This document shows, piece after piece, positions 9,673 to 42,701 of a DNA stretch of 64,000 nucleotides (position 1 is the stretch's first letter; each line of letters opens with the position of its first letter). The notes beneath the pieces were generated by a model. It worked only from the letters and a program-made list of their open reading frames with translations, was not told the DNA's origin and did no database searches. Both the position numbers and the translations under genes were made by a program. The stretch comes from a virus. The stretch lies in IMG/VR virus record IMGVR_UViG_3300035698_025300. One strand, given 5' to 3'.

Positions 9673-9747
9673 TACTCCCGGCAGGACTCGAACCTGCAAC
9701 TTCCTGTTTCGTAGACAGGCACTCTAATTCCATTGAGCTACGAGAGT
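9673..9747 (-). tRNA. tRNA-Arg(ACG)
   Basis: Cloverleaf, loop CTACGAA. Confidence 0.9.
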
Positions 9748-9788
9748 GTTTTAAATGGTCCACCATGCAAGCTCCGCTTCTTCATACC

Positions 9789-10067
9789 TTATTTTGCGCC
9801 AAGATATGTTGCAATGCCTGTGATCCTTTCTCGACACATGCGAAGCATATTTTTCGCTATTTTTCTTTTTTTATCGTCTTTAACGCGATACTGCTTGCTT
9901 CTATACTTTTTCCAATTACGTTCAGTGTGAGCGTAGGAATAGTAGTCCCACGGATCAATTCCACTGTAAGATTTTGGCTTGCGAGGTTTTACAAAAATCT
10001 TGTGTTCGTCATCCAGATCCGGCCAAGAATCTCTATGAAGCATTTTTAAGTTTCTTTTATACGCCAT
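9789..10067 (-). CDS. hypothetical basic protein
   Basis: 92-aa ORF with RBS between tRNAs. Confidence 0.6.
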   Translation of the reverse strand: MAYKRNLKMLHRDSWPDLDDEHKIFVKPRKPKSYSGIDPWDYYSYAHTERNWKKYRSKQYRVKDDKKRKIAKNMLRMCRERITGIATYLGAK

Positions 10068-10152
10068 TCAAATCTCCCTAGTTAATTCAATAACTAGGGA
10101 AACCAAGACGAATTATTATAAAATTCTTCATTCACATTCTCCAAATATATGA

Positions 10153-10224
10153 TGGCTTTACCAAGACTCGAACTTGGATCAAAGGTTTCGAAGACCCTCA
10201 TGCTATCCTTTACACCATAAAGCC
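10153..10224 (-). tRNA. tRNA-Arg(TCG)
   Basis: Cloverleaf, loop CTTCGAA. Confidence 0.9.
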
Positions 10225-10230
10225 TAGTGA

Positions 10231-10302
10231 TGCGCCATACCGGATTCGAACTGGTACCCACTGACTGGAAATCAGGCATGCTGCCGTTAACACCAATGGC
10301 GC
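10231..10302 (-). tRNA. tRNA-Gly(TCC)
   Basis: Cloverleaf, loop TTTCCAG; directly preceded by TTGCAT-17-TATAAT. Confidence 0.9.
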
Positions 10303-10354
10303 TCATGTGTTATTATATGATTGCTTTCTGAACTATGCAATCATTTTTAAAAAA

Positions 10355-10427
10355 TAGGCGATCCCGGATTCGGACCGGGGACCATCGCGGTGTAAACACG
10401 ACACTCTAGCCACTGAGTTAATCGCCT
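10355..10427 (-). tRNA. tRNA-Val(TAC)
   Basis: Cloverleaf, loop TTTACAC. Confidence 0.9.
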
Positions 10428-10625
10428 GTAAAGGATCATCGCATGACCTGCGGACCGAACGGCCGGCGGTAGTCGGTCATCTTAGCACAATCACGTTCTG
10501 CTAGGGAAATATCTCTATTTTTTGGCCAAAAGTAAAAGACATAATCACGGCAATAACTCCCATCATAGCAGTTACCTCATTGTAGCGACAATCGCTGTTG
10601 CCGAATACCCACTAAGCGTGGGCAG

Positions 10626-10699
10626 TGATCCTTGCTGGACTCGAACCAGCGGCCTTCTGTGCGTCGAGCAGATGCTCTTGCCATCTGAGCTAAAGGACC
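10626..10699 (-). tRNA. tRNA-Val(GAC)
   Basis: Cloverleaf, loop TCGACGC (C33, atypical). Confidence 0.8.
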
Positions 10700-10764
10700 A
10701 GTAATACTTACTATTTCATTATAGCAGACTGTTTGAGATTCTGCAAGTAAAAACAATTTCATAA

Positions 10765-10839
10765 TACCCCCAATAGGACTCGAACCTACATATGTCACAG
10801 GGTGTAGACCTGCCGCTAGACCAATTCAGCTATGGGAGT
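10765..10839 (-). tRNA. tRNA-Val(TAC), atypical
   Basis: Stem GCAGG/CCTGT, loop TCTACAC. Confidence 0.65.
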
Positions 10840-10876
10840 GTAATTAAATCTTACTGTATTTAAACCAGAAATAAAA

Positions 10877-10959
10877 TCCGGGCAGCAGGAATCGAACCTG
10901 CGTCAGAGCTATGCTCCCACGGTTATCAGCCGTGTGCCTAACCATTCGGCCACACCCGG
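10877..10959 (-). tRNA. tRNA-Ile(GAT) with long variable arm
   Basis: Loop CTGATAA; variable arm GGAGCATAGCTCTGAC. Confidence 0.8.
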
Positions 10960-11190
10960 TTATTCTTCTACATTAGAAAACATACAAGAGCTAAAAATAT
11001 ATCCAGAATGCTCTTCTAATTCAACTGAAGTATAAGAACAGTCAACTTCTATATTCTTAATAGTATATTCTCGACCTAAAACTAAAATTCTTTTAGCTAT
11101 TCTAATATTACCACTCCAATCTGCTGATGGATGAGTAAACCTGATCCTACTTCTTCTAGGAGTATAAATATCCATATACTGATCTTCCAT
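10960..11190 (-). CDS. hypothetical protein
   Basis: ORF with RBS. Confidence 0.6.
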   Translation of the reverse strand: MEDQYMDIYTPRRSRIRFTHPSADWSGNIRIAKRILVLGREYTIKNIEVDCSYTSVELEEHSGYIFSSCMFSNVEE

Positions 11191-11232
11191 ATTAATCTCC
11201 GAAAAGATTGTTGAACAAGTCTTTAGTTTCTT

Positions 11233-11394
11233 TTACCTTTCTTCAAATTCTGGAGGAGTTTGCTCTTTTTGCATTTTGTATGCTTCAGAACAATATTCGC
11301 ATCCCCTCCCTCCATTGCAGCAATTATTTCCACAATTACCCCATTTCACAAAAGGCTCTCTACAATGACCACAATAATCCCATTCATGTTTCAT
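11233..11394 (-). CDS. small Cys-rich hypothetical protein
   Basis: MKHEWDYCGHC...CC..C..C. Confidence 0.5.
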   Translation of the reverse strand: MKHEWDYCGHCREPFVKWGNCGNNCCNGGRGCEYCSEAYKMQKEQTPPEFEER

Positions 11395-11416
11395 GTTATT
11401 CCTCATCATAATCTTC

Positions 11417-11725
11417 TCATTTATCATAGTCATCGTAATAAAAATCAAGATTATATAAATCTATCAAAATTTCGCATGCTTCTTTTGGACCAAATTGGCA
11501 CAAAAGATACCTGTCAGGGCCGACTATATTAACCCCTGTTGATGGCCCGTCCATAGACAGCATGAATTTGCACCCGTCTTCCAGTTTTACAGGTTCCGAC
11601 TCCCTGTTTGGTCCATACACGGCAAATTTGCTACTTATCTCATATTCTTTTGTGCCGGTCAGCTTAGTAACAGTTGTCCCGTCTGGAATATCTTTAACCT
11701 TCAGCAATATTTTAACTTTTTCCAT
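11417..11725 (-). CDS. hypothetical protein
   Basis: ORF with RBS. Confidence 0.6.
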   Translation of the reverse strand: MEKVKILLKVKDIPDGTTVTKLTGTKEYEISSKFAVYGPNRESEPVKLEDGCKFMLSMDGPSTGVNIVGPDRYLLCQFGPKEACEILIDLYNLDFYYDDYDK

Positions 11726-11749
11726 CTTATACTCCTCATTTTTATTTCA

Positions 11750-11944
11750 TCATACTAGATCATTAAGGTCAACATGAAGTATTGAGCGAAGGTCATCTGG
11801 TAGCGTAACAATCGCGTAACTGTCCGTTTTTATTGCAGTTACATGAACACGACTTTGACTGTCATCAACTTTATCGCTCGGAACAAAGAACGAGTATTCC
11901 CCGGCTTGAGCTTTAACAATTACAGTAAGCTCATCGCTAAACAT
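11750..11944 (-). CDS. hypothetical protein
   Basis: ORF with RBS. Confidence 0.5.
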   Translation of the reverse strand: MFSDELTVIVKAQAGEYSFFVPSDKVDDSQSRVHVTAIKTDSYAIVTLPDDLRSILHVDLNDLV

Positions 11945-12028
11945 TCCTTTTTTTTACAGCACATTTAAGCCACTGTTTCATACTACTTCTCCAATATAAT
12001 TTTAAATTCCTTATGAGACTCTTATGTA

Positions 12029-12327
12029 TTACTGGCTATTTTCTTTTTTAAGCCGGTCTCTTAAATCCATAAGGAAAAATCCAAGGTAATTTTTACCGTT
12101 TCCAGAATTGGCTGGTGATACTCCCCAATATGTATCTCCCCACCAGTTTCCTTCTTCTAAAACTAAATCTCCGGTCGATAACAATTTCTTCCTTATGATT
12201 TAGCTGCCTGATAAGCATGTTCTGTGCTTGGGTGTTCAATTCCATCAAATTCTACAACAGTTGTTTCGCCCATCCAAAAGTTTGACAGAAAGCGGTACTC
12301 GCCCTCAAACTCTGATATTTTCTTCAT
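12029..12327 (-). pseudogene. NADAR (YbiA-like) family gene with internal deletion and frameshift
   Basis: N-terminal FLSNF...STEHAYQAAK, then in another frame IRKKLLSTGDLVLEEGNWWGDTYWGV...GKNYLGFFLMDLR; the usual central segment is missing. Confidence 0.75.
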
Positions 12328-12353
12328 TATTTTTCTCCTATTTTTCTTATTAA

Positions 12354-12426
12354 TGGAGCTACTGGGGGTCGAACCCAGAATCTCATCCGTGCAAAGGATG
12401 CGTCTTCCCATCAAGACCTTAGCCCC
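12354..12426 (-). tRNA. tRNA-Ala(TGC)
   Basis: G3-U70, loop TTTGCAC. Confidence 0.92.
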
Positions 12427-12429
12427 AAA

Positions 12430-12678
12430 CTATATATCAGAACCTATTCTATGTTTCCTGCTATAAGTCTGCCTTTTTGCCACTTCTTCTTGGCTTATTT
12501 GATCTTCTCCGACAAAAGTAACTTGCCATCCATTTTCCCATTTGTCGTTTTTTTTAATTTCAAGAAACTTATCTTGAATTGCAAACTTGGATGGAACCCA
12601 AGCAACATCGTGTAAAATTGTTCCATCTGCCTTTTTTAACTGCAACTTACATTGTTTGTAATATACTATTTTAGACAT
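12430..12678 (-). CDS. hypothetical protein
   Basis: Probable start MSKIVYY within the longer track ORF. Confidence 0.55.
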   Translation of the reverse strand: MSKIVYYKQCKLQLKKADGTILHDVAWVPSKFAIQDKFLEIKKNDKWENGWQVTFVGEDQISQEEVAKRQTYSRKHRIGSDI

Positions 12679-12877
12679 TTTTTCACCATTTAAAAAGGTT
12701 ATTACATTTTTAGTGATATAATAAATATATGAAAGAACCTTTTTGCCCTTATTTTCATCTATGTCACTTTGGTAACAGAGTTCGCAGTATGGAGCGCCCA
12801 TGCAGCATCTGTAAGCATCTAAAATTGCCAGACTTATTTTCTCCAAAAGGACAAAAAGACATAAAACGCAATGAAAA

Positions 12878-12948
12878 CACGCCCTAGAGGAATCGGACCC
12901 CTGCCTACTGGGTTGGAACCAGCCGCACTGCCACTATACTAAAGGCGT
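12878..12948 (-). tRNA. tRNA-Trp(CCA)
   Basis: Loop TTCCAAC, G73. Confidence 0.88.
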
Positions 12949-12990
12949 AAATTTAATCTTTTTCAAATGTCTGGAACAGAACTTTATAAA

Positions 12991-13062
12991 AGCCAGTATA
13001 GAGACTTGAACTCTACTCTCTTGTCTACCAAACAAGCGCATCGCCATCTATGCTTTACCGGC
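12991..13062 (-). tRNA. tRNA-Thr(GGT)
   Basis: Loop TTGGTAG. Confidence 0.88.
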
Positions 13063-13110
13063 ATTGTTGGTGTAATAGTCCATTATACGAAACCGTCAAA
13101 ACACATTCAA

Positions 13111-13183
13111 TCCGCTTACTAGGAATCGAACCTAGAGCCTTCTGGGTAAGAACCAGACACTCTACCAGTTGAGCTATAAGCGG
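13111..13183 (-). tRNA. tRNA-Lys(CTT)
   Basis: Loop TTCTTAC. Confidence 0.9.
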
Positions 13184-13579
13184 TCAATGCCAATGACTAA
13201 ATACCCACAAAGATATGTCATCAACAGTAATTTCTTTTTTAGATAAAACAGAAATCGATCCGTTAGGACCAAAAGCCAAATCCAGAGCGGCAGCGATACT
13301 CTCTCGAAGAGAGTAAAAATCGTAAACCCTTTCAAAATCAGTAGGTTCGAGGCCGCCAGAAGATTCATTCCATTTCTCTAAGATTTGTCCAGCAAAAACG
13401 TACTGTCCATTCATTCCGTCAAAGATTACGTTAATTCCGTTTTTGCCTTCGATATCTGTGTTATACGCGCTGTCAAAATATTCTTCACATTTCTCATATG
13501 CGTCTTCATTGTCATCTGCCATTTCTGGGTAGGGCAGCTTAACTCCCAGTATGGCATAGTTCATCAATTCTGTGCCCAT
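13184..13579 (-). CDS. hypothetical protein
   Basis: 131-aa ORF with RBS and an upstream TTGCAG-17-TATATT. Confidence 0.7.
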   Translation of the reverse strand: MGTELMNYAILGVKLPYPEMADDNEDAYEKCEEYFDSAYNTDIEGKNGINVIFDGMNGQYVFAGQILEKWNESSGGLEPTDFERVYDFYSLRESIAAALDLAFGPNGSISVLSKKEITVDDISLWVFSHWH

Positions 13580-13865
13580 AAAAATCTCCTCGTTCTGTAT
13601 TCGTATAATATAAAGTTATGCAGATTCACCTGCAAGACAGTCGTTTTTATTCAGCTATTGAGACCTTCTTTTTGTAGAGCCTTAAGAGCAAATTGGTATG
13701 CGGTATCTACCGCTCAGCCTTTTTGGAATAAAAGTCTTTGAGCATCTTTGGGGATTGATTCTCCACTTGTTGTGAATATAGCGAAAATACCAAAATCGTT
13801 CTCAGCAACATCGTAAATGTTATTTTCTTTACTCATTTTTTGCTCCTTATTGATATTTTTATCAA

Positions 13866-13938
13866 TAACCCCGCCGGGAATCGAACCCGGAGTCTTCCGA
13901 TTAAAGGTCGGATGCTTTGCCAATTAAGCTACGGAGTC
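13866..13938 (-). tRNA. tRNA-Lys(TTT)
   Basis: Loop CCTTTAA. Confidence 0.85.
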
Positions 13939-13946
13939 ACAAAATA

Positions 13947-14033
13947 TAGGCCGGACAGGATTCGAACCTGCGATGGTGCTTTCGCAACGCCAGATTAAAA
14001 ATCTGGTCCCTTCAGCCACTCGGACACCGGCCC
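13947..14033 (-). tRNA. tRNA with TTT (Lys) anticodon on a type II, Ser-like body
   Basis: D-arm TGTCCGAGTGGCTGAAGGGA, loop TTTTTAA, 18-nt variable arm, A73. Confidence 0.8.
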
Positions 14034-14256
14034 GTGTTTTAGTGAGTGTTGAAGGTTTACCTTGTTGATGAACATAACTCATCTCGTTTCTCCTTTTGTT
14101 ATTAAAACCTATCCATAAAAATACTCTGCCATTGCAACTTCATATGTTTCTCCATCAACCTCGATGGAATTATCTCGTTCTCTGCCAATTAAAATCATTT
14201 GCAATTTGGCTTGCTCTTTTGCTCTATTTTCTACTTTTTTCATTAATTCGTTTAAT

Positions 14257-14643
14257 TCAATTCTCATCCTTAGCCCCCTCTGGGAATATGTAGTCCATAG
14301 CCACTTTTTCTATGTCTTCTCCATTTCCTATTAAAGTATAATAAATTTCACCATTCTCGTCAAAAGTAGAAGAAATAAGATTATTTTTTTCCATTTCTCT
14401 TAATGCATATCCCATTAGGCGCATTTCTAGTTCTTCTGCCATATCTTCTTCTGTAGCTTCGTGATTTCCGTTATTCCAAAAATATACTAAAATTGAATTT
14501 CCAAAATCAACTACACAATCAGTATATGTTTTAAGGTCTTTAAAATCTTCTTTTTTGATTTCATATTCATAAATTGCTTTTAAGCATTCTTCGTATCTTT
14601 TCAGTGATATCTCTTCGTATGGACATTTTTCAACATTACTCAT
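14257..14643 (-). CDS. hypothetical protein
   Basis: 128-aa ORF, RBS, promoter TTGCAG-17-TATAAT upstream. Confidence 0.7.
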   Translation of the reverse strand: MSNVEKCPYEEISLKRYEECLKAIYEYEIKKEDFKDLKTYTDCVVDFGNSILVYFWNNGNHEATEEDMAEELEMRLMGYALREMEKNNLISSTFDENGEIYYTLIGNGEDIEKVAMDYIFPEGAKDEN

Positions 14644-14722
14644 TTATCAACTCCTATTATGAAAGTGTATTACATTATATAGCGAACATGTAAAAACTGC
14701 AATAATAGGACATACTTTATTA

Positions 14723-14794
14723 AGCCGGCTGCGGGAATCGAACCCGCTTATCTGGCTTACAAGACCAGCACATTACCATTTATGCTTAACCGGC
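14723..14794 (-). tRNA. tRNA-Thr(TGT)
   Basis: Loop CTTGTAA. Confidence 0.92.
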
Positions 14795-14805
14795 GTAAAT
14801 AAAAA

Positions 14806-15054
14806 TATCAATACTATAGCCAGGATTCTGTTATCAGCATACATTTATCTCTTTCTGCGTCAACAAAAAGGCAAGAAAACTTGCCGCCCTCGACCCGCCC
14901 ATTGTAGAACAGCTTACCATCTAGGACTGTTTGAGGTTGCATATCGGGTCAATTCCCTATACGTGGTCCAAGCGACTTACATCTCCCACATTAAAGCTAG
15001 ATATGTCCTGAGCTTCCTCTATCACGATCGTGACAGCGTATGCTCGCATTGATA
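14806..15054 (-). ncRNA. rnpB: compact RNase P RNA
   Basis: P1 TATCAATGC/GTATTGATA, P2 AGCATAC/GTATGCT, P3 hairpin, P4 GAGGAAGCTCAGG paired with 3' ACAGAATCCTGGCTATA, helix ATCTAG/CTAGAT. Confidence 0.85.
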
Positions 15055-15057
15055 CAA

Positions 15058-15132
15058 TGGCTAGAGCCGGATTTGAACCGGCGACACCCGCATTTTCAGT
15101 GCGGTGCTACTACCAGACTGAGCTATCTAGCC
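15058..15132 (-). tRNA. tRNA-Phe(GAA)
   Basis: Loop CTGAAAA. Confidence 0.92.
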
Positions 15133-15173
15133 GAAAAGTAAACAACTATTCTTTAAGAGTTTAGGATAAACAG

Positions 15174-15247
15174 TGGACCGCGCCGGGACTCGAACCCGGA
15201 ACCTTTTCCGTGCAAAGGAAACATTCTCCCAATTGAAATACGCGCCC
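15174..15247 (-). tRNA. tRNA-Ala(TGC)
   Basis: Loop TTTGCAC; one bulged base in the acceptor stem. Confidence 0.85.
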
Positions 15248-15255
15248 ATTTATAA

Positions 15256-15327
15256 TGGAGCCTCCCGGGATCGAACCAGGTCCTGTGGTACTTCGCACCA
15301 CCGCTTAACCTTTTAAGCTAAAGCTCC
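15256..15327 (-). tRNA. tRNA with GAA at the anticodon position (Phe?), atypical loop
   Basis: Stem GTGGT/ACCAC, loop GCGAAGT. Confidence 0.55.
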
Positions 15328-15384
15328 AAAACCTATATTTAATTTTCAATACATTTTTATAAATTTCTATCAAATTTATGCATT

Positions 15385-15419
15385 AAAAAAGCCTACCGAA
15401 CTCATTTGTGCGGTAGGCT
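15385..15419 (-). terminator. attenuator terminator 1
   Basis: AGCCTACCG...CGGTAGGCT followed by a T-run; homologous to the 20487-20521 hairpin. Confidence 0.85.
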
Positions 15420-15458
15420 CATAAAAAATAACGTAAAGCTCTAACGCACTTCCTCCGC

Positions 15459-16833
15459 CAAGCACACTTCGATGGGGCACCCGTAGACGAGAAAGAGGCA
15501 GTGCTTCCATATCGGGGATTTGAGAAATACCAGTACATAGCCTACAAGTTCGGGCGCATTGCCAGAAAGCTGAACTACGTCAACAAATAGGCGCTATGGC
15601 ATTCCGAACAGACCAGGCCTGCTTTGGTCTTTGGTCTTCGGCTTCTGTCCAGCATTCCCGCAATGGTCGATGTCGGCAGGATCGTAGTTTGTCCAAAGGA
15701 CCTCGGTACGCTTGCCTTTCGTGGCGTGGTTGGTGCGTTCAGCGCTCCGAGTCCTATACCACTGGCATTCGGGATACAACTCTTCCATCAGGTCGCAATC
15801 GTAGTTGGAGATGGCAACGTGACCCACCACTGTATTCAGGACTGCTGCAAGCGCCCGGTGTTCGTCATCTGTCATTTCGAAGCCATAGGCCTTCGTGTCG
15901 CCTCGGGTTGCGTGGATATATGGAGGATCACAGTAGAAAAGGGTATCGGGCGAATCATATAGGAGGATAACGTCAATGGCTGGACGGTTCTCTATCTGAA
16001 CACGAATCAAGCGTTCCGCGATCGCAGGCAGTTGGTCAACTCCTCCGAGCCAACGGCTGATTACACCACTCATGCCGCGGCGACTAGTGTTCTTGCAGTT
16101 CGCCCACCTGCCTATCGTGGCTGTCTGTGCCAGGCCTGTTCGGACTTGGCGAGCGCGAATATAGAAGCGCCTGGCTCGTTCCAGAGGAGGTACATCCGGG
16201 TCCAAGACACATGCACTGCCAAATTCCTCTCTCGAAAAGGGCGTGAGAGCGATGGCCTCGATTAGCTTGTCCTTCTCATCTCTGAGTACGCGGAAGAAAT
16301 TGCAGACTTCACCGTCCAAGTCGTTGTATGTTTCGATGCTGGCGGGAGGCCGATTCAGAAGTACGGCGGCCGACCCGGAGAACGGCTCGCAATAGTGATG
16401 GCATGGCGGCAGCAATGGAAGAAGCCAGTCTAAGTGGCTAAACTTCCCCCCATACCAGCCGAATGGGATCAGCTTCCGGCGTCCGAGCCGCTGTACGGGC
16501 GGGGCCAGCTTTCGTCCGTTCTTCTTTCTTTTCATTCCGTCCATGTGCAATTCCAAAAGGCAGTAAGTGATTTTCTAACTGTGCGTTACCGCCATTCCTA
16601 GGTGGTTAGGAAGTCGGTCCAGCAGTATTGATCAACTGTAACCCGTGCCAGCGGAAATTGCGAGGCTTTTCGTTACAGGCCCTACCAGATCGGACATCGG
16701 ACGAGCCCATTCCGCCGGGCGTCACGAGGCCTTGGAAGGCGTCTCCACTGGAGCCGCCGAGGCAACTCGGGATCGAAGGCCTTGGACCACTTCGCGCCAA
16801 CGCCTCTGGAGTTCCGTTTCGATGGAGCTCCGC
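15459..16833. mobile_element. 1375-bp GC-rich captured bacterial DNA segment flanked by a 6-bp direct repeat
   Basis: CTCCGC at 15453-15458 and 16828-16833; abrupt GC shift; truncated gene 3' ends at both sides. Confidence 0.8.
15594..16556 (-). CDS. DNA adenine methyltransferase (Dam/D12-class N6)
   Basis: FGWYGGK, YCEPFSGSAAV, YNDLD, FYCDPPY. Confidence 0.92.
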   Translation of the reverse strand: MELHMDGMKRKKNGRKLAPPVQRLGRRKLIPFGWYGGKFSHLDWLLPLLPPCHHYCEPFSGSAAVLLNRPPASIETYNDLDGEVCNFFRVLRDEKDKLIEAIALTPFSREEFGSACVLDPDVPPLERARRFYIRARQVRTGLAQTATIGRWANCKNTSRRGMSGVISRWLGGVDQLPAIAERLIRVQIENRPAIDVILLYDSPDTLFYCDPPYIHATRGDTKAYGFEMTDDEHRALAAVLNTVVGHVAISNYDCDLMEELYPECQWYRTRSAERTNHATKGKRTEVLWTNYDPADIDHCGNAGQKPKTKDQSRPGLFGMP

Positions 16834-16898
16834 TGTAAAGGCTTTAACCGCCCAAATAGTTTTAAAGAACATGTTGTTACGTGCGTTTTCCATGCTTC

Positions 16899-16927
16899 AT
16901 TATATGATACTCAAAACAGCAGTGCAA
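16899..16927 (-). promoter_or_regulatory. sigma70 promoter of leader 1
   Basis: TTGCAC-17-TATAAT with AT-rich upstream element. Confidence 0.8.
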
Positions 16928-17031
16928 CAACTTTTTTTTAAAAAATATTTCAGCTCAATCATAAAGGTTTTTACCCATATATTAAGTATTTATACTTTAG
17001 GCTACAATATTAATTAAGGGGTTTTCAATAT

Positions 17032-19092
17032 ATGTCCAATTTTAATAATTACAAAGGTTTTAAGATATTAGCAGGAACGCCAACAGGCGATGGTGGAAAA
17101 GCTTTAAATGAAAATTTCACCTACGCAGGAGATACGATAGAAGACGCAGGAGATACGATAGAAGAAAATAGTAATGACATCTTATCTCTAGAAAATAAAA
17201 GCACAATCAATTATTGGAGTTTTGACCTTTTGGGAGACTCAATATCAACTGTTAGCGGGAACCTGTGGTCTGGAACAATCACATATGGTAGCTGGGCAGA
17301 AATGGCTGCAATATTTTCAAACCAAAGGGTGCAGCTTGCTAATAGATTTGCTTCTGGCGGGTATAGCTCTCAAGAGATTATGAACAACTATTTATCTAGT
17401 GCTGTAGCTTCAGATTCTGATATGTGCGTCATCCACTGCGGGATTAATGATTGGGGGGATGGTATAGTTTCAACGACAACACTCCTTAATATTAGGACCA
17501 TGACAGATGCTCTAATAGCCGTTGGAAAAAAGGTCATTCTAACGACATTAATGCCAGATGGCTCGACGGCGGGACTGGACTCCAAGTGGCATGAATGGTA
17601 CCTGATTAACGAAGGAATAAGATCAATGGTACTAGAATATCCCGGTAAAGTTGTTTTAGCTGATTTCGCTAATGTTGTAATCGATATAGATGCAAATGTA
17701 AGTGGGCCGAGAGGAGATTCTATGGGTCATCCGTCCTGGAAGAGTGAATATAGTACCGACCTCGTACATCCAAAAGCTGGCCCAGCTACAAGAGAAATGG
17801 GTCGAGCACTATTAGAAGCCTTTGAGAGATTTTCTATTCCAAACGAGTATTTTTGGCTGGGCTCTACTGGGTCAATTAATGGTGTCCACAACCCGCTTTG
17901 TTTTGGAGAGGACGGGAGCTTGGCTGGAGGGGCGACCGGAACGGCTCCAGACTGGTGGAAATTTGAGGGGAATTCTGATTGGGTTTCGTATGTATCAGCC
18001 AGAACAGGAAACCAAAGCCGAAGCAATTGGTTCTCAGCAACTATGGACGCCACAGTTGCGCCGGCAAGCTTAACACAGCCTTCTATAAGACTCCAGGATG
18101 GCGTGTATAAAGTATACCTCGACATAGAAATACCAATAGGAGCAGAAGCCAATAACTCTGATAGCTATATCCAATTATTTTATCAAGACTCAGATGGAAG
18201 TCCAATTGAAGTTTATAACGCTAGATATTTTCAAAACGAGGCATTAATAGATTCCGAAAATGGATTTTCTGGAACGCTCAAAGGTAATGTAACCATCAAC
18301 AGCGGTGATACTAATGTTAAGTTACTTTTACTCATTTCTGGTATTTCTGATGTTTCTGTTTCTGGACTAAGATTCGAAACCGTCACAGATAGCTCTTCTG
18401 TTAGAAATGTATTAGATTTTGACGGGGCAGGATTCATCGGCACTGACCTGACTGTTCCTATTGTTTCGGGCGTTTTTCCGGCTACTACTGGATGGACGAT
18501 AGAAGCCTGGGTGAATGCGGTAGAAGCTAGAATAGAAAGCGGAATTGTTACAAATAAAATAAGAGGAATATGTAGCGGATGGCAAAATATATGTCCGTTT
18601 TTTGGGATTAATGAAAATAATTATTTTGAACTATCTGCTCACATAAATAATAATATCTTTAAAGACGATAGCTCAGTTCTTGCCCCAGATGGGTCTGGCT
18701 ACGGGTGGCATCATTACGCTGTTACAGTTTCAAATAATGGAGGGAATACTGATATTATATACTATTATGACGGGATAAAAATAGGATCAACTGTCACTAC
18801 GGCGGGAAACCTGACAAACAACTCCGCGTATGAAGGATTAAATTATATTGGGAAATCTGCTGGATCAGTTGGGATATTAGGGTCTATTGCGGGTTTTGGA
18901 ACACGCCCATCTCCAGCGACACCGGCGGAAATAGCTACGGCATACGCAGAAGGGCTAGGGACTTTGACAGATTATGACATGTACCTAAGATGCGATGACG
19001 GATCTGGAACTACTGTCACAGATTCAACGGTAAATGAAAATGATGTAACATTGCCAGCATCTGGAGCTGCTTGGGGAACTGACGTTGTTTGA
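17032..19092 (+). CDS. SGNH/GDSL hydrolase plus LamG-like domain protein, probable virion appendage
   Basis: GDSIS, CGINDW, D.VHP; C-terminal WTIEAWV...WHHYAVT LamG pattern. Confidence 0.75.
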   Translation: MSNFNNYKGFKILAGTPTGDGGKALNENFTYAGDTIEDAGDTIEENSNDILSLENKSTINYWSFDLLGDSISTVSGNLWSGTITYGSWAEMAAIFSNQRVQLANRFASGGYSSQEIMNNYLSSAVASDSDMCVIHCGINDWGDGIVSTTTLLNIRTMTDALIAVGKKVILTTLMPDGSTAGLDSKWHEWYLINEGIRSMVLEYPGKVVLADFANVVIDIDANVSGPRGDSMGHPSWKSEYSTDLVHPKAGPATREMGRALLEAFERFSIPNEYFWLGSTGSINGVHNPLCFGEDGSLAGGATGTAPDWWKFEGNSDWVSYVSARTGNQSRSNWFSATMDATVAPASLTQPSIRLQDGVYKVYLDIEIPIGAEANNSDSYIQLFYQDSDGSPIEVYNARYFQNEALIDSENGFSGTLKGNVTINSGDTNVKLLLLISGISDVSVSGLRFETVTDSSSVRNVLDFDGAGFIGTDLTVPIVSGVFPATTGWTIEAWVNAVEARIESGIVTNKIRGICSGWQNICPFFGINENNYFELSAHINNNIFKDDSSVLAPDGSGYGWHHYAVTVSNNGGNTDIIYYYDGIKIGSTVTTAGNLTNNSAYEGLNYIGKSAGSVGILGSIAGFGTRPSPATPAEIATAYAEGLGTLTDYDMYLRCDDGSGTTVTDSTVNENDVTLPASGAAWGTDVV

Positions 19093-19099
19093 GTTTTTA

Positions 19100-19173
19100 T
19101 ACCCGTACACGGATTCGAACCGAGATTAACAGCTTGAAGGGCTGTCGTCCTAAACCACTTAGACGATACGGGC
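19100..19173 (-). tRNA. tRNA-Glu(TTC)
   Basis: Loop CCTTCAA. Confidence 0.88.
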
Positions 19174-19177
19174 GTAT

Positions 19178-19942
19178 TTAGTATCCAATTTTATTATTAA
19201 ATATAGGTTTCATCCTACATTTAGAATCACCAGTAAAATGTAAAAGATCAAAATCCATAAATAGTTTTTTTGTTTTTTTTGTAGACGGGTAATAGCCAAT
19301 TTTTATATTACATTCTACTCCATCATAAATATTGTTGTATATCATATAATTAAAAGCTGTTTGATCATATGAGTTTGAACTTCTATATCTTTTGCCATTT
19401 TTTATTAAATCAAGCCAAATATCAAACATATGAGACAAATATTTAGAATTTATTGCGAAAAAACCAGCATTTATCCCACGAATACCACTCATTTTATTTA
19501 ACCGTTTTCTACTAAACATCTGATTATGCCAGGAATTGTTTTTCAGAAGACAGTCTTCTAAAACGTATTTAACTTTCCCATTATCTAATCCATTAAATAT
19601 ATTATGAATTTTTTTACAAAATAAAATATCTGCGTCTACAAACATTATGTTTTTATACTTATTTGGGTCTATCATTCTACCACAAGCTATCTTCATATAT
19701 CGATCATCATTTGGAGTTTGCTTAACTTTGAAAATTTTATAGTATCCGCTATTGTCGCACTGGCAATCTGTGAATATTATTATATCTCCATCAAATTTTC
19801 CTTTCTTCCTAGCCGAGATAGCGCACATTTTTGCCATCTCAAAATGTTTTTCTCCAAGACCGACAGTATACATAACACTGTTTTCTTTTGATTTATTTGT
19901 ATAATGCAAAGTGACTCTTTCCATCATTTTATCATGCCACAT
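19178..19942 (-). CDS. GT-A glycosyltransferase (GT8-like)
   Basis: FVDADIL, INAGFF, DQTAFN, HFTG. Confidence 0.75.
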   Translation of the reverse strand: MWHDKMMERVTLHYTNKSKENSVMYTVGLGEKHFEMAKMCAISARKKGKFDGDIIIFTDCQCDNSGYYKIFKVKQTPNDDRYMKIACGRMIDPNKYKNIMFVDADILFCKKIHNIFNGLDNGKVKYVLEDCLLKNNSWHNQMFSRKRLNKMSGIRGINAGFFAINSKYLSHMFDIWLDLIKNGKRYRSSNSYDQTAFNYMIYNNIYDGVECNIKIGYYPSTKKTKKLFMDFDLLHFTGDSKCRMKPIFNNKIGY

Positions 19943-19980
19943 AATCAGCGTTTATCCTTTACGAAACTACAAATAAAGAA

Positions 19981-20055
19981 CACCCCTAATCGGATTCGAA
20001 CCGATGTTAACAGACTGAGAATCTGTCGTCCTAAACCTAACTAGACGATAAGGGC
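19981..20055 (-). tRNA. tRNA-Glu(CTC)
   Basis: Loop TTCTCAG. Confidence 0.9.
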
Positions 20056-20074
20056 ATTACGCGAAAAATGTCAA

Positions 20075-20169
20075 CTCCCTAGCTAGGACTCGAACCTAGA
20101 ACCTGCTGGTTATTTATTGCGCTATTTAACGCATACAGCCAGCCGCTCTACCAATTAAGATACTAGGGA
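20075..20169 (-). tRNA. tRNA-Asn(GTT) with a 22-nt intron in the anticodon loop
   Basis: U1-A72, G73; removing 20113-20134 gives loop CTGTTAA. Confidence 0.75.
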
Positions 20170-20175
20170 ATAAGA

Positions 20176-20266
20176 CTCCAGGGGGAGGACTCGAACCTCC
20201 ATACCGTTCTAGACGGATTACGTCTGATTAACAATCAGGTCACTTACCCAATTAGTGTACCCCAGA
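20176..20266 (-). tRNA. tRNA-Asn(GTT) with long variable arm
   Basis: Loop TTGTTAA, 22-nt variable region, U1-A72, G73. Confidence 0.8.
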
Positions 20267-20345
20267 ATATGTAATATTTACTTGTCATTATTTCGCACTG
20301 ATGTTTCTTTTAAACATCTTTCCAGTTTATATCCATCAAAAAAAG

Positions 20346-20418
20346 GGCGACTAACCAGATTCGAACTGGCCCCCACAGATTCACAGTCTATTATGCTAAC
20401 CACTACACCATAGCCACC
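20346..20418 (-). tRNA. tRNA-His(GTG)
   Basis: G-1:C73, loop CTGTGAA. Confidence 0.92.
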
Positions 20419-20440
20419 GTATCAATATTTAATTTTCAAA

Positions 20441-20477
20441 ACAACGCGGCGCCTTAACCAATTGGGCCACGCTCACC
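20441..20477 (-). pseudogene. 5' half of a tRNA (His-like), truncated at the anticodon loop
   Basis: GGTGAGCGTGGCCCAATTGGTTAAGGCGCCGCGTTG with no 3' half. Confidence 0.6.
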
Positions 20478-20486
20478 ATGTATATT

Positions 20487-20521
20487 AAAAAAGCCTACCG
20501 AACGTTTCTGCTCGGTAGGCT
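20487..20521 (-). terminator. attenuator terminator 2
   Basis: AGCCTACCGA...TCGGTAGGCT followed by a T-run. Confidence 0.88.
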
Positions 20522-20543
20522 CATAAAAATCTATGCTTATGAC

Positions 20544-20621
20544 TTAACGCACGAATACCTCTTCAGCGGTTTCTTCCGCTTCGTTATGATTAAATTCATT
20601 ATGGTTTCGTGCAAAAGTCAT
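20544..20621 (-). CDS. leader peptide 2, MTFARNHNEFNHNEAEETAEEVFVR
   Basis: RBS AAGGA; 25 codons between promoter and terminator. Confidence 0.8.
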   Translation of the reverse strand: MTFARNHNEFNHNEAEETAEEVFVR

Positions 20622-20641
20622 AGTAATTTTCCTTATGTCTT

Positions 20642-20670
20642 ATTATATGATACTGAACATCAGCAAGCAA
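20642..20670 (-). promoter_or_regulatory. sigma70 promoter of leader 2
   Basis: TTGCTT-17-TATAAT. Confidence 0.8.
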
Positions 20671-20716
20671 CTTCTTTCTTAAAAAATCTTTGTTCGTTCT
20701 CTATTTATAAAAATTA

Positions 20717-20787
20717 AGCTCTCGGAGGGGGTCGAACCCTCATCTCTGGTGTACGAGACCAGTATGCTCCCCTTGCACCACAAGAGC
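20717..20787 (-). tRNA. tRNA-Thr(CGT)
   Basis: Loop CTCGTAC. Confidence 0.88.
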
Positions 20788-20830
20788 GTCAAACAACATT
20801 ATATTATAGTATATTATTTTTTATATGCAA

Positions 20831-21895
20831 TTATTTTCTATTAAAAACAACAGAGGCATAACATCTTGACGGTCGATCTCTTTTTATCCTATACTTGGAG
20901 ATACTTTTAGTGTCTTTGCTTAAGTGTTCCCAAAAATCGTATAAATTGTTTCTATAATTTTCATTATATATAAGATGAATTAATAGGGATGAAATTCCTT
21001 TTGGGCTAAGATACTTTTCCCATGTTTCTTTTGATTTTTTTGCAAAAGGTTCTGGGTCTATTTCTTTTAAGACCAAAAGATCTGATGGAGAGTTAATATA
21101 TACATAATGTTCATTGGGGTAAAATGGGAACGGATAGCATGGTATATAGTTAAAAGCCAAAGGCATGCCGAGTGACATATATTCCGTTTCCCTGTAGCAT
21201 TTTCCATCATATTTAGTACTTGAACCGCGAAGGGAAAACCCCCATTTACATTTTTCTAAACTGTCTACATATTCGGATTTATTTTTATGGAATTTAGGGT
21301 AAAATAGTCCAGATTTTTTAGCGTGATCAACCCAAGGTCTTCTGTGGCCTCTATTTCTATCCACAGTAAAAGCAGAGCTTCCTAAATATTTGTGATTTTC
21401 GTTCTTCCATAAAAATCTCCCAACAGGAAAATTTTTACTAACCCCATAAGCAAAAGGTAAAATCTTAAATCCATATTTTTCTTCAATAGACGTAAACAGA
21501 TCTTTATGTTTAAGTGTATATTGCAATATGAAATAAAATTTGATACCTCTAAATAGTTCTTCATAATTCTCAACAAAACTGTGAGATATGTGTGGTACGT
21601 CGTGGCCGTCTAATATACAGTTTATATTATTTATTCTTATTTTATATAAATGATCACCAATATATTTCATTTTTCTAACGCTTCTCTTCAACAACTGCGA
21701 AACGGTTACGTTTTTGAAAATTCCACTATTCCGAAAACAGTCATTAAAATAACGAAAATTATAGTTGCGACCAGGGTTTGACACAGTTAAACTGTGTTGA
21801 GTTTTTTCAAAATGACTAAAATCATATTTGCTAAACACTCTATTATTAAAATGATATTTTAGATTAGACCGTCTAGACATAAAACCTCTTCGCAC
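20831..21895 (-). CDS. putative glycosyltransferase (GT-B-like C-terminus)
   Basis: EYVDSLEKCKWGFSLRG...CYRETEYMSLGMP pattern; gene context. Confidence 0.55.
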   Translation of the reverse strand: MRRGFMSRRSNLKYHFNNRVFSKYDFSHFEKTQHSLTVSNPGRNYNFRYFNDCFRNSGIFKNVTVSQLLKRSVRKMKYIGDHLYKIRINNINCILDGHDVPHISHSFVENYEELFRGIKFYFILQYTLKHKDLFTSIEEKYGFKILPFAYGVSKNFPVGRFLWKNENHKYLGSSAFTVDRNRGHRRPWVDHAKKSGLFYPKFHKNKSEYVDSLEKCKWGFSLRGSSTKYDGKCYRETEYMSLGMPLAFNYIPCYPFPFYPNEHYVYINSPSDLLVLKEIDPEPFAKKSKETWEKYLSPKGISSLLIHLIYNENYRNNLYDFWEHLSKDTKSISKYRIKRDRPSRCYASVVFNRK

Positions 21896-34509: not shown

Positions 34510-34584
34510 TAGCGGGAGATGGATTCGAACCACCGACCTGGAGCTTATGAGGCTCCCGAGCTAACCTAACTGCTCTATCCCGCG
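34510..34584 (-). tRNA. tRNA-fMet-like (CAT)
   Basis: C1/U72 mismatch, A11-U24, loop CTCATAA; lacks the three consecutive G-C anticodon-stem pairs. Confidence 0.8.
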
Positions 34585-35291
34585 ATGTGGATTATGTATC
34601 TCTACGTGACAATTTCTGCACAAAAGAATACATTTTGATAATTCTTCTAAAACTTTATCCCAGCTACATGTTAATATATTAGATATATTATGCTTTTTAT
34701 CATGAATATGATGAAATTCTAATCCATCTAATATATCGTAGCCGCATATGCTACATTTATTTCCTAAAATTTTTATTGCTCTTATTTTTCTGTTTATATA
34801 ATTACTTCGTCTTTTCTTTTGATTCATATGATATTGGTTATGACATCTGGAACATAAAAGAATACATTTTGATAACTCTCTTTCTATTTTGTTCCAACTA
34901 TGACCTATAATATCATATATATTAAATTCTTTTTCATTTTCATGATGGAATGTTAGTGCTGCATAATTTTTGCAGTATCCACAGAAAGAACATTTAGAAC
35001 CTTTCATTTTTATAGCTTTTACTTTATTCTTATATTTTATATCTTTAATTGCTATATTTAAACATTTTTTGCATTTATTATATTGCCCATTTCGAAATTT
35101 TTCAATATTTGTTTCTCTACAGACTATACATCTATAAAATCTTTTTAAGTTTTTATATTTAGTTGTTAATTTATACTTTTTAATAAACGACAAACCGCGC
35201 TGGCTCTTTTATTTATTTTTTTGCCAATTTCTCTTTGTGAAAAGCCTTTTTCGGTTAAATCCTTCAATTCTAAATATATCTTATTATCCAT
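34561..35291 (-). CDS. free-standing homing endonuclease: HTH plus two HNH repeats, with an A5 frameshift near 35180
   Basis: MDNKIYLELKDLTEKGFSQREIGKKINKRASAVCRLLK then -1 frame; two CS.CGY...FHH...ELSKCILLC..CH repeats. Confidence 0.8.
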
Positions 35292-42574: not shown

Positions 42575-42694
42575 ATGAATACTGCAACACAACAATTTGA
42601 AGGCGTAGCTATAGTCAATAAGACTGTCTCGCAATCTTTGTATTCATCGTTATCCTATCTCTCTAGTAGTTTATCTAGTTATTGTTTGCTGTAA
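42575..42694 (+). CDS. leader peptide 3, MNTATQQFEGVAIVNKTVSQSLYSSLSYLSSSLSSYCLL
   Basis: RBS AGGA; 39 codons before the Leu/Tyr/Cys/Ser tRNA array. Confidence 0.8.
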   Translation: MNTATQQFEGVAIVNKTVSQSLYSSLSYLSSSLSSYCLL

Positions 42695-42701
42695 TCACGC
42701 A

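Follow-up and report, generated by a model that had tools for sequence, protein, structure and literature searches.

A G+C-rich block with an adenine methylase gene interrupts a leader ORF at the head of a tRNA array in phage DNA

T4 Dam and P1 Dam are phage-encoded orphan methylases. Phage orphan methylases derived from restriction-modification (R-M) systems have been reviewed (PMC12707154), and anti-restriction is the standard reading of such genes. The window analyzed in this study, a stretch of 64,000 nucleotides (64 kb) of viral DNA (IMG/VR record IMGVR_UViG_3300035698_025300), harbors a foreign block of 1375 bp, hereafter the island, which contains an intact D12-class N6-adenine DNA methylase gene and splits a short leader open reading frame (ORF) at the head of a 17-tRNA array. 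With a G+C content of about 37%, 37 tRNA genes, one transfer-messenger RNA (tmRNA) gene, and other ORFs that are mostly small and unassignable, the window is treated as part of a large tRNA-rich phage genome. Like the reviewed enzymes, the methylase is solitary and of the D12 adenine class, its relatives are methylase (M) subunits of type II systems, and its presumed role is self-protection. However, it differs from them in its visible scar, comprising stubs of both neighboring genes, a foreign composition and apparent microhomology joints, and in its placement inside a putative regulatory leader instead of a separate gene cassette.

Three further systems are close to this locus. Type II modules of the SacI family combine a RE_SacI nuclease (PF09566) with a D12 methylase, and the methylase described here is 70-88% identical to those located beside RE_SacI; however, no RE_SacI-like ORF is present in the window, and the enzyme is an adenine methylase, unlike the 5-methylcytosine (m5C) enzymes cited for GAGCTC (bioRxiv 10.1101/2024.07.15.603628). 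Phage morons are likewise foreign genes of deviant composition that replace nothing essential, but morons classically come with a promoter and a terminator of their own, whereas the island appears to borrow those of the unit that it interrupts. The leader-peptide attenuators of enterobacteria (trp, his, pheA, pheST and thr) share with the interrupted unit a promoter, a short codon-rich ORF, 1:2, 2:3 and 3:4 pairings, and a terminator with a U-run. Here, however, phage tRNA genes rather than biosynthetic or synthetase genes lie downstream of the putative attenuator, and no Rfam leader family matches. A literature search did not find leader-peptide control of phage tRNA operons described.

The interrupted unit, its paralog about 5 kb away, and the inserted block comprise the following features.

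16899-16927, minus strand: promoter-like site of leader 1, TTGCAC-17-TATAAT, with an extended -10 GTATCATATAAT identical to that of leader 2 (20642-20653).
16828-16893, minus strand: 5' part of the leader-1 ORF, 22 codons (MENARNNMFFKTIWAVKAFTAE), holding segment 1 (AACGCAC, 16887-16881) and the distal GCGGAG copy (16833-16828).
15459-16833, no strand: foreign inserted block, 1375 bp, 55.4% G+C, delimited by composition, nucleotide identity to the donor family and paralog alignment.
15437-15458, minus strand: 3' part of the leader-1 ORF (GCG GAG GAA GTG CGT TAG) and segment 2 (GUGCGUUAGAGCUU), for which segment 1 and the terminator's 5' arm are alternative predicted partners.
15385-15420, minus strand: intrinsic terminator with a 10-bp stem and a U-run, -18.0 kcal/mol; the leader-2 terminator (20487-20522) has identical arms.
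9673-15328, minus strand: array of 17 tRNA genes downstream of leader 1 (Phe, Ala, Phe, Thr, Lys x3, Thr, Trp, Ala, Ile, Val x3, Gly, Arg x2) and a few small ORFs.
20478-20690, minus strand: intact paralogous leader-2 unit, with TTGCTT-17-TATAAT, a Shine-Dalgarno sequence, a 25-codon ORF (MTFARNHNEFNHNEAEETAEEVFVR) and a terminator, followed by tRNA-His, Asn, Asn, Glu and Glu.

The G+C content of the island is 0.554 versus 0.375 for the remaining window, and the profile rises from 0.33-0.41 to 0.52-0.56 between about 15450 and about 16850 before falling back. At third codon positions (GC3), the methylase gene reaches 0.62 versus 0.24-0.36 in four phage genes. The direct repeat CTCCGC stands at 15453-15458 and 16828-16833, and the edges of the block can slide along these 6 nt; a 6-base repeat around a given insertion is expected by chance about once in 4096 cases. 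As present, the leader-1 frame runs for 95 codons into the island, to 16606. When position 16834 is joined to 15458 on the minus strand, the frame instead reads MENARNNMFFKTIWAVKAFTAEEVR and a stop, making 25 codons, with the insertion point at codon 22/23. When the restored unit is compared with the leader-2 unit (20418-20700) over the stretch between promoter and first tRNA, the alignment scores 126, against 12 +/- 5 for shuffled sequences, and passes unbroken through the restored joint. Because the restored frame, the paralog alignment, the identical terminator arms and the identical extended -10 all agree, the island is confirmed to split a pre-existing, duplicated promoter-ORF-terminator unit. 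A sequence-only reading of the window had already proposed a foreign, G+C-rich island flanked by CTCCGC, a 25-codon leader homologous to leader 2 on its removal, and neither transposase nor terminal inverted repeats; each of these points holds. No transposase was found among the island ORFs and no terminal inverted repeats among its repeat pairs.

The island and its joints hold the features below.

15594-16544, minus strand: intact D12-class N6-adenine DNA methylase gene, 316 amino acids (aa), with an alternative TTG start at 16556.
15447-15590, plus strand: 3' end (about 47 codons) of a convergent HhH-GPD/Ogg-like donor gene, reading ...HFLRQAHFDG...KLNYVNK and a stop.
16630-16832, minus strand: 3' remnant of an upstream donor gene (recombinase), an open frame ...IETELQRRWREVVQGLRS... 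to a TGA (16724-16722), then a same-frame tail ending in KSLAISAGTGYS.
15447-15458, minus strand: left-joint overlap GCGGAGGAAGTG, phage leader codons AEEV (paralogous to leader 2), holding the proximal repeat copy (15453-15458).
16825-16830, no strand: GAGCTC at the right joint, the sole copy in the window against 10 +/- 3.4 expected, with none in the phage part.

The methylase matches PF02086 with 82.2 bits (cut-off 22; E = 6e-23) and the DpnM structure 2dpm with E = 2e-11. It contains the DPPY motif (YCDPPYIH) and the S-adenosylmethionine (SAM)-binding motif EPFSGSAAV, and retains all residues that are invariant across ten aligned relatives. The gene had been called full and Dam-like; it is indeed full length, but it reaches neither model of Dam proper (TIGR00571, 71.5 bits versus a cut-off of 114.85; NF008152, 36.1 versus 441), so "Dam-like" denotes the class only and implies no GATC specificity. 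More than 8000 proteins match the methylase, the best of them 83-88% identical. Family members at 70-78% identity are numerous in Planctomycetota, Verrucomicrobiota, Chloroflexota, Acidobacteriota, Bacteroidota, Pseudomonadota and other groups, and the family is conserved at 70% aa identity or more over at least 10 phyla.

The family is closely tied to a nuclease. In a search with a profile built from five neighboring nucleases, run on 80 genome loci, an ORF of the SacI nuclease family adjoined the methylase in 73 of the 80, usually directly downstream, and the nuclease of locus L001 matched RE_SacI (PF09566) at 1.4e-71. Among 13 viral contigs with close methylase relatives, eight carried the nuclease and five did not. 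As the window has no such nuclease, the methylase is an orphan in the present phage, which took only the M gene from a highly mobile type II system. The locus shows that the methylase of this widespread module circulates as a phage orphan, too. The SacI family name points to GAGCTC as a candidate target, and the copy of GAGCTC at the right joint may have been made by the joint or borne by the donor. A study of marine methylomes described cytosine methylation at GAGCTC (PMC9516812).

Both neighbors of the methylase gene are truncated, as had been noted, but their extents needed correction: homology on the left reaches to about 15447, and the recombinase remnants reach to about 16630. In six close relatives, the gene after the methylase encodes a protein of 276-312 aa, to whose C-terminus the convergent stub is 72-76% identical over its residues 3-49, and the full-length relative has weak Ogg/HhH-GPD matches. 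On the other side, the tail KSLAISAGTGYS, together with the surrounding DNA, fits the conserved C-terminal K-x-LAI-x-AGTG of the large serine recombinases encoded ahead of the methylase in L001 and L002. For the part of this stub upstream of the TGA (16832-16725), no homolog was found by tblastn on all relative loci or by a degenerate pattern in metagenome contigs. The gene order in the closest clade is recombinase, methylase, convergent 288-aa gene and RE_SacI. Since the recombinase tail, methylase and convergent-gene tail stand in this donor-locus order, sequence comparison indicates that the island is a single colinear cut of a donor locus of the closest-clade type. The position of the convergent HhH-GPD/Ogg-like gene between M and nuclease (R) genes in that clade is itself an odd three-gene arrangement.

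It had been suggested that the origin of the island may identify the host, but the comparisons do not support this. The family is present in at least 562 species genomes of many phyla, and the best match (87-88% aa and 77-79% nucleotide identity; protein P0001 at 88%) is too distant for the donor to be named, because the closest relative is only 88% identical. Against L001 and L002, the nucleotide identity of the island is 77-79%. Its closest matches lie on a prophage-like contig from a Phycisphaeraceae metagenome-assembled genome (87% aa, 79% nucleotide identity) and on metagenome contigs, and the closest locus, L001, is a prophage-like region with recombinase domains.

On the left, the island and the donor family remain homologous at the DNA level through the repeat to about 15447 and then diverge. 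The overlap GCGGAGGAAGTG corresponds to GCGCAGGTAGTG at this place of the donor gene in four of five aligned close relatives (10/12 identical), and to ACGCAGGTACTG in L001 (9/12 identical); at the right joint, no relative aligns. A 6-bp direct repeat fits a target-site duplication and microhomology equally, and here donor-family homology spans the left copy. Insertion of a transposon, or of another element able to move by itself, with duplication of a 6-bp target site would explain the perfect direct repeat at the ends. However, the ORFs of the island are the methylase and two stubs, with no transposase ORF, no inverted-repeat pair links its ends, each end falls within a gene fragment that keeps the order of ordinary donor loci, and the donor-family homology runs past the left repeat, making such an element highly improbable. 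The recombinase tail at the start of the island and the prophage-like character of L001 are in turn what a serine-recombinase element (a prophage or island), integrated and then mostly deleted, would leave. However, the joining of att sites by large serine recombinases leaves no 6-bp duplication, and no att-like repeats were seen; such a history would also need two extra deletions that restored the phage frame exactly by chance, and it is the least credible of the alternatives considered. The simplest reading would be illegitimate recombination (template switching or end joining) at microhomology, in which re-entry into the phage at a patch of similarity explains the 6-nt repeat. A 14-nt similarity near the island ends (15468-15481 and 16818-16831, 12/14) was judged to be due to chance, as many equally good pairs occur in the same 1.7 kb.

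The insertion looks recent, because its donor-like composition is unameliorated and palindromes avoided by the phage are still present. The G+C content of the methylase gene is 0.555 versus 0.557-0.582 in its relatives, and the island holds nine sites of 6-bp palindromes that otherwise occur zero to one times in the phage, five of them AGGCCT. The captured methylase DNA would thus still be unadapted to the composition and the strong palindrome avoidance of the phage.

Metagenomic data bear on the reality of the joints. Words of the window were found in salt-lake metagenome runs, none of the runs with the phage being recorded as RNA, and Logan contigs of runs X1-X4 matched the island and its flanks with no differences and at a similar low depth (2-4x). 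The left joint is bridged by a 276-nt X1 contig that covers 15227-15502 without a mismatch. A search with the island only returned solely salt-lake metagenome runs, seven in which the phage had been found and one more, X10, at 0.11, with no additional high-share holder. The island is present wherever the phage is seen (7-8 runs, 2017-2019), and no run holds the island without the phage. In an assembly chimera, reads of a G+C-rich organism would have been threaded into the phage contig, and the low depth, together with a right joint covered by no Logan contig, is compatible with such an artifact. However, a chimeric contig would not be expected to rejoin the phage precisely where it left it, with a 6-nt repeat and a restored frame. 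Along with the bridged left joint and the confinement of island words to phage-holding runs at similar shares and depths, this makes a chimera very unlikely.

For the interrupted unit, leader-peptide attenuation of phage tRNA operons is a plausible function. The restored leader 1 and leader 2 are predicted to fold alike, with a helix between the start-proximal and stop-proximal parts of the ORF followed by a strong terminator. The 1:2 helix of leader 1 forms between AACGCAC and GUGCGUU (15449-15443), and the region folds at -16.5 kcal/mol, versus -30.4 in leader 2; the leader-2 terminator reaches -22.5 kcal/mol, compared with -18.0 in leader 1. The predicted 2:3 antiterminator of leader 1 pairs GUGCG-UUA-GAGCUU with the 5' arm of the terminator (-14.1 kcal/mol). 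Mutually exclusive 1:2, 2:3 and 3:4 helices with a U-run terminator are thus predicted in the restored leader 1 and in leader 2, the two sequences covered. The central residues of leader 1, FFKTIWAVKAF, precede tRNAs for Phe, Ala, Thr, Lys, Trp, Ile and Val, whereas those of leader 2, HNEFNHNEAEE, precede tRNAs for His, Asn and Glu; set against the downstream tRNAs, the counts are 11/1 for leader 1 and 2/9 for leader 2 (Fisher p = 6e-4). In addition, by direct reading, a third leader (42576-42695) closes with a run of Ser, Leu, Tyr and Cys codons before tRNAs for Leu, Cys and Ser. An Rfam search of 14500-21000 (E <= 1) returned only tRNA matches and no leader family. That four codon-matched leaders act as ribosome-sensing attenuators of phage tRNA operons, with the island as a natural knock-in that uncouples one of them, is a tentative proposal that may well prove wrong. 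If true, the leader promoter would drive the methylase, and the 17 tRNA genes of the array would be left without their sensor and read through constitutively, with the intact paralog 5 kb away as an internal control.

The ATG of leader 1 lies 5 nt past the -10 and has no Shine-Dalgarno sequence, which suggests a nearly leaderless mRNA. In a comparison of 16891-16904 with 20600-20641 on the minus strand, this start aligns with the Shine-Dalgarno region of leader 2, and an ATG of its own stands in 13 nt that only leader 2 has; both leader ORFs have exactly 25 codons despite these different starts. Between the leader-2 terminator and tRNA-His, the minus strand at 20440-20478 resembles the 5' half of a tRNA (GGTGAGCGTGGCCCAATTGGTTAAGGCGCC...), a feature that the leader-1 unit lacks. 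In both units, a conserved 15-mer stands ahead of the first tRNA; being confined to these two paralogs, it was rejected as a general promoter.

The methylase gene stands in the orientation of the leader promoter, and since that strand has no terminator-like site between the two, it should be transcribed from this promoter. The strong early promoter for the methylase and the constitutive tRNA operon proposed from the sequence alone would be possible effects of this arrangement. The nearest upstream stop before segment 2 is now that of the methylase, about 140 nt away, and segments 2, 3 and 4 are still adjacent. With segment 1 about 1.4 kb off and the stop about 140 nt off, neither segment 1 nor a terminating ribosome should be able to mask segment 2, and the classical kinetic model predicts that the 2:3 helix is favored, with read-through into the tRNA genes. 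Where the island had been described as duplicating the antiterminator segment, the displacement of segment 1 by about 1.4 kb from its partner stands, and GCGGAGG can pair with the terminator arm (duplex energy -12.0). The duplication, however, amounts to only 6 nt and leaves out the stronger predicted antiterminator, and the repeat is better read as recombination microhomology. A second AACGCAC, identical to segment 1, lies within the methylase coding sequence at 15733-15739 on the minus strand, upstream of segment 2 by 284 nt; this copy is native to the donor family (it is present in L002) and probably due to chance, with about 0.08 expected.

Taken together, a bacterial or prophage genome richer in G+C would be the source of the 1375-bp segment, which would have been copied or spliced into the phage by illegitimate recombination at short patches of similarity. 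The segment carries a serine-recombinase tail, the complete methylase gene of a type II module of the SacI family and the end of a convergent gene resembling HhH-GPD. It interrupts an ORF that has a sigma-70-like promoter on one side and an intrinsic terminator on the other, ahead of the 17-tRNA array. Most likely, the methylase is expressed from the leader promoter and methylates phage DNA in advance, as protection from the cognate nuclease of hosts with this widespread module. As a by-product, the putative attenuator would have been split, with the 2:3 antiterminator as the default and read-through into the tRNA genes. Starting from the observed insertion, its content, its colinearity with donor loci, the lack of mobility genes and the co-occurrence with the phage, this capture of an orphan methylase into a leader ORF, with its presumed mechanism, expression, anti-restriction benefit and effect on attenuation, is probable as the whole explanation. 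The locus would then be a snapshot of a lytic-type, tRNA-rich phage gaining an anti-restriction methylase through a random cut of a mobile R-M locus with few-base joints. Such gene capture is ordinary in kind, the scar is unusually legible, and the interest lies mainly in the breaking of a putative, undescribed attenuator. The broken leader 1 beside its intact paralog would offer a natural allele pair for comparing tRNA-operon read-through within one infection.

Several points weigh against this explanation. A failure of reads to span the junctions had been named as a refuting outcome. The left joint is bridged by an independent contig, but no independent contig bridges the right joint, where X1 and X3, the two runs covering this area, have a coverage gap (16818-16857); moreover, X1 may be the sample behind the window's own assembly. 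The island-free allele sought in reads or relatives was not found, either among Logan contigs or by an exact search of IMG/VR for the predicted empty site and the leader start. No contig skips the island, but at a depth of 2-4x this absence is weak evidence. No close phage relative was found, so the pre-insertion state is reconstructed from the paralog only. Equilibrium folding keeps the terminator in all contexts tried, including the island-bearing one. Furthermore, the GAGCTC methylases cited in a preprint (bioRxiv 10.1101/2024.07.15.603628) are m5C enzymes, and if GAGCTC is the target of the present methylase, the 62.6 kb of phage sequence has no sites to protect.

In a rival reading, the insertion is real and the methylase is a neutral or regulatory passenger, tolerated at a non-essential site. 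With 11 G+C-rich 6-bp palindromes, GAGCTC among them, already avoided by the phage, methylation of GAGCTC would offer little protection, and only an M gene with random stubs was taken, as in accidental capture. On the other hand, the gene is intact and has kept every residue invariant in its ten aligned relatives, its orientation matches that of a promoter with a strong consensus, every one of the 7-8 runs in which the phage has been seen contains it, and the target site may not be GAGCTC. A passenger is accordingly considered unlikely, although it deserves more weight than any of the other rivals, and protection of the phage DNA by the captured methylase is preferred.

Outside 15459-16833, G+C-rich 6-bp palindromes are strongly avoided across the window. 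AGGCCT, CACGTG, CCTAGG, CGCGCG, CTCGAG, CTGCAG, GAGCTC, GCGCGC, GGGCCC, GTCGAC and GTGCAC each occur zero times there, against 2-11 expected. The avoidance of GAGCTC was therefore rejected as a specific sign of SacI pressure, since all 11 palindromes are wholly absent from the phage. GATC is also low outside the island, with 178 copies against 235 +/- 15 expected.

Similar phages were not encountered: DNA searches of INPHARED returned no similar phage record, the terminator pattern had no match among metagenome contigs of the Joint Genome Institute (JGI), and a neighboring 686-aa gene had no relative in a protein-based locus search or in a collection of 5.8 billion proteins. In the Rfam search described above, 14806-15054 matched no RNase P family, and an additional tRNA (48.6 bits), unlisted by ARAGORN and probably with a long variable arm, was found at 20075-20169 on the minus strand between tRNA-Asn and tRNA-Glu. 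Directly upstream of tRNA-Met, at 34561-35193 on the minus strand, lies a 210-aa ORF with repeated Cys-x-x-Cys and His-His motifs, which appears HNH-like by eye and is placed between a promoter-like site and a tRNA array.

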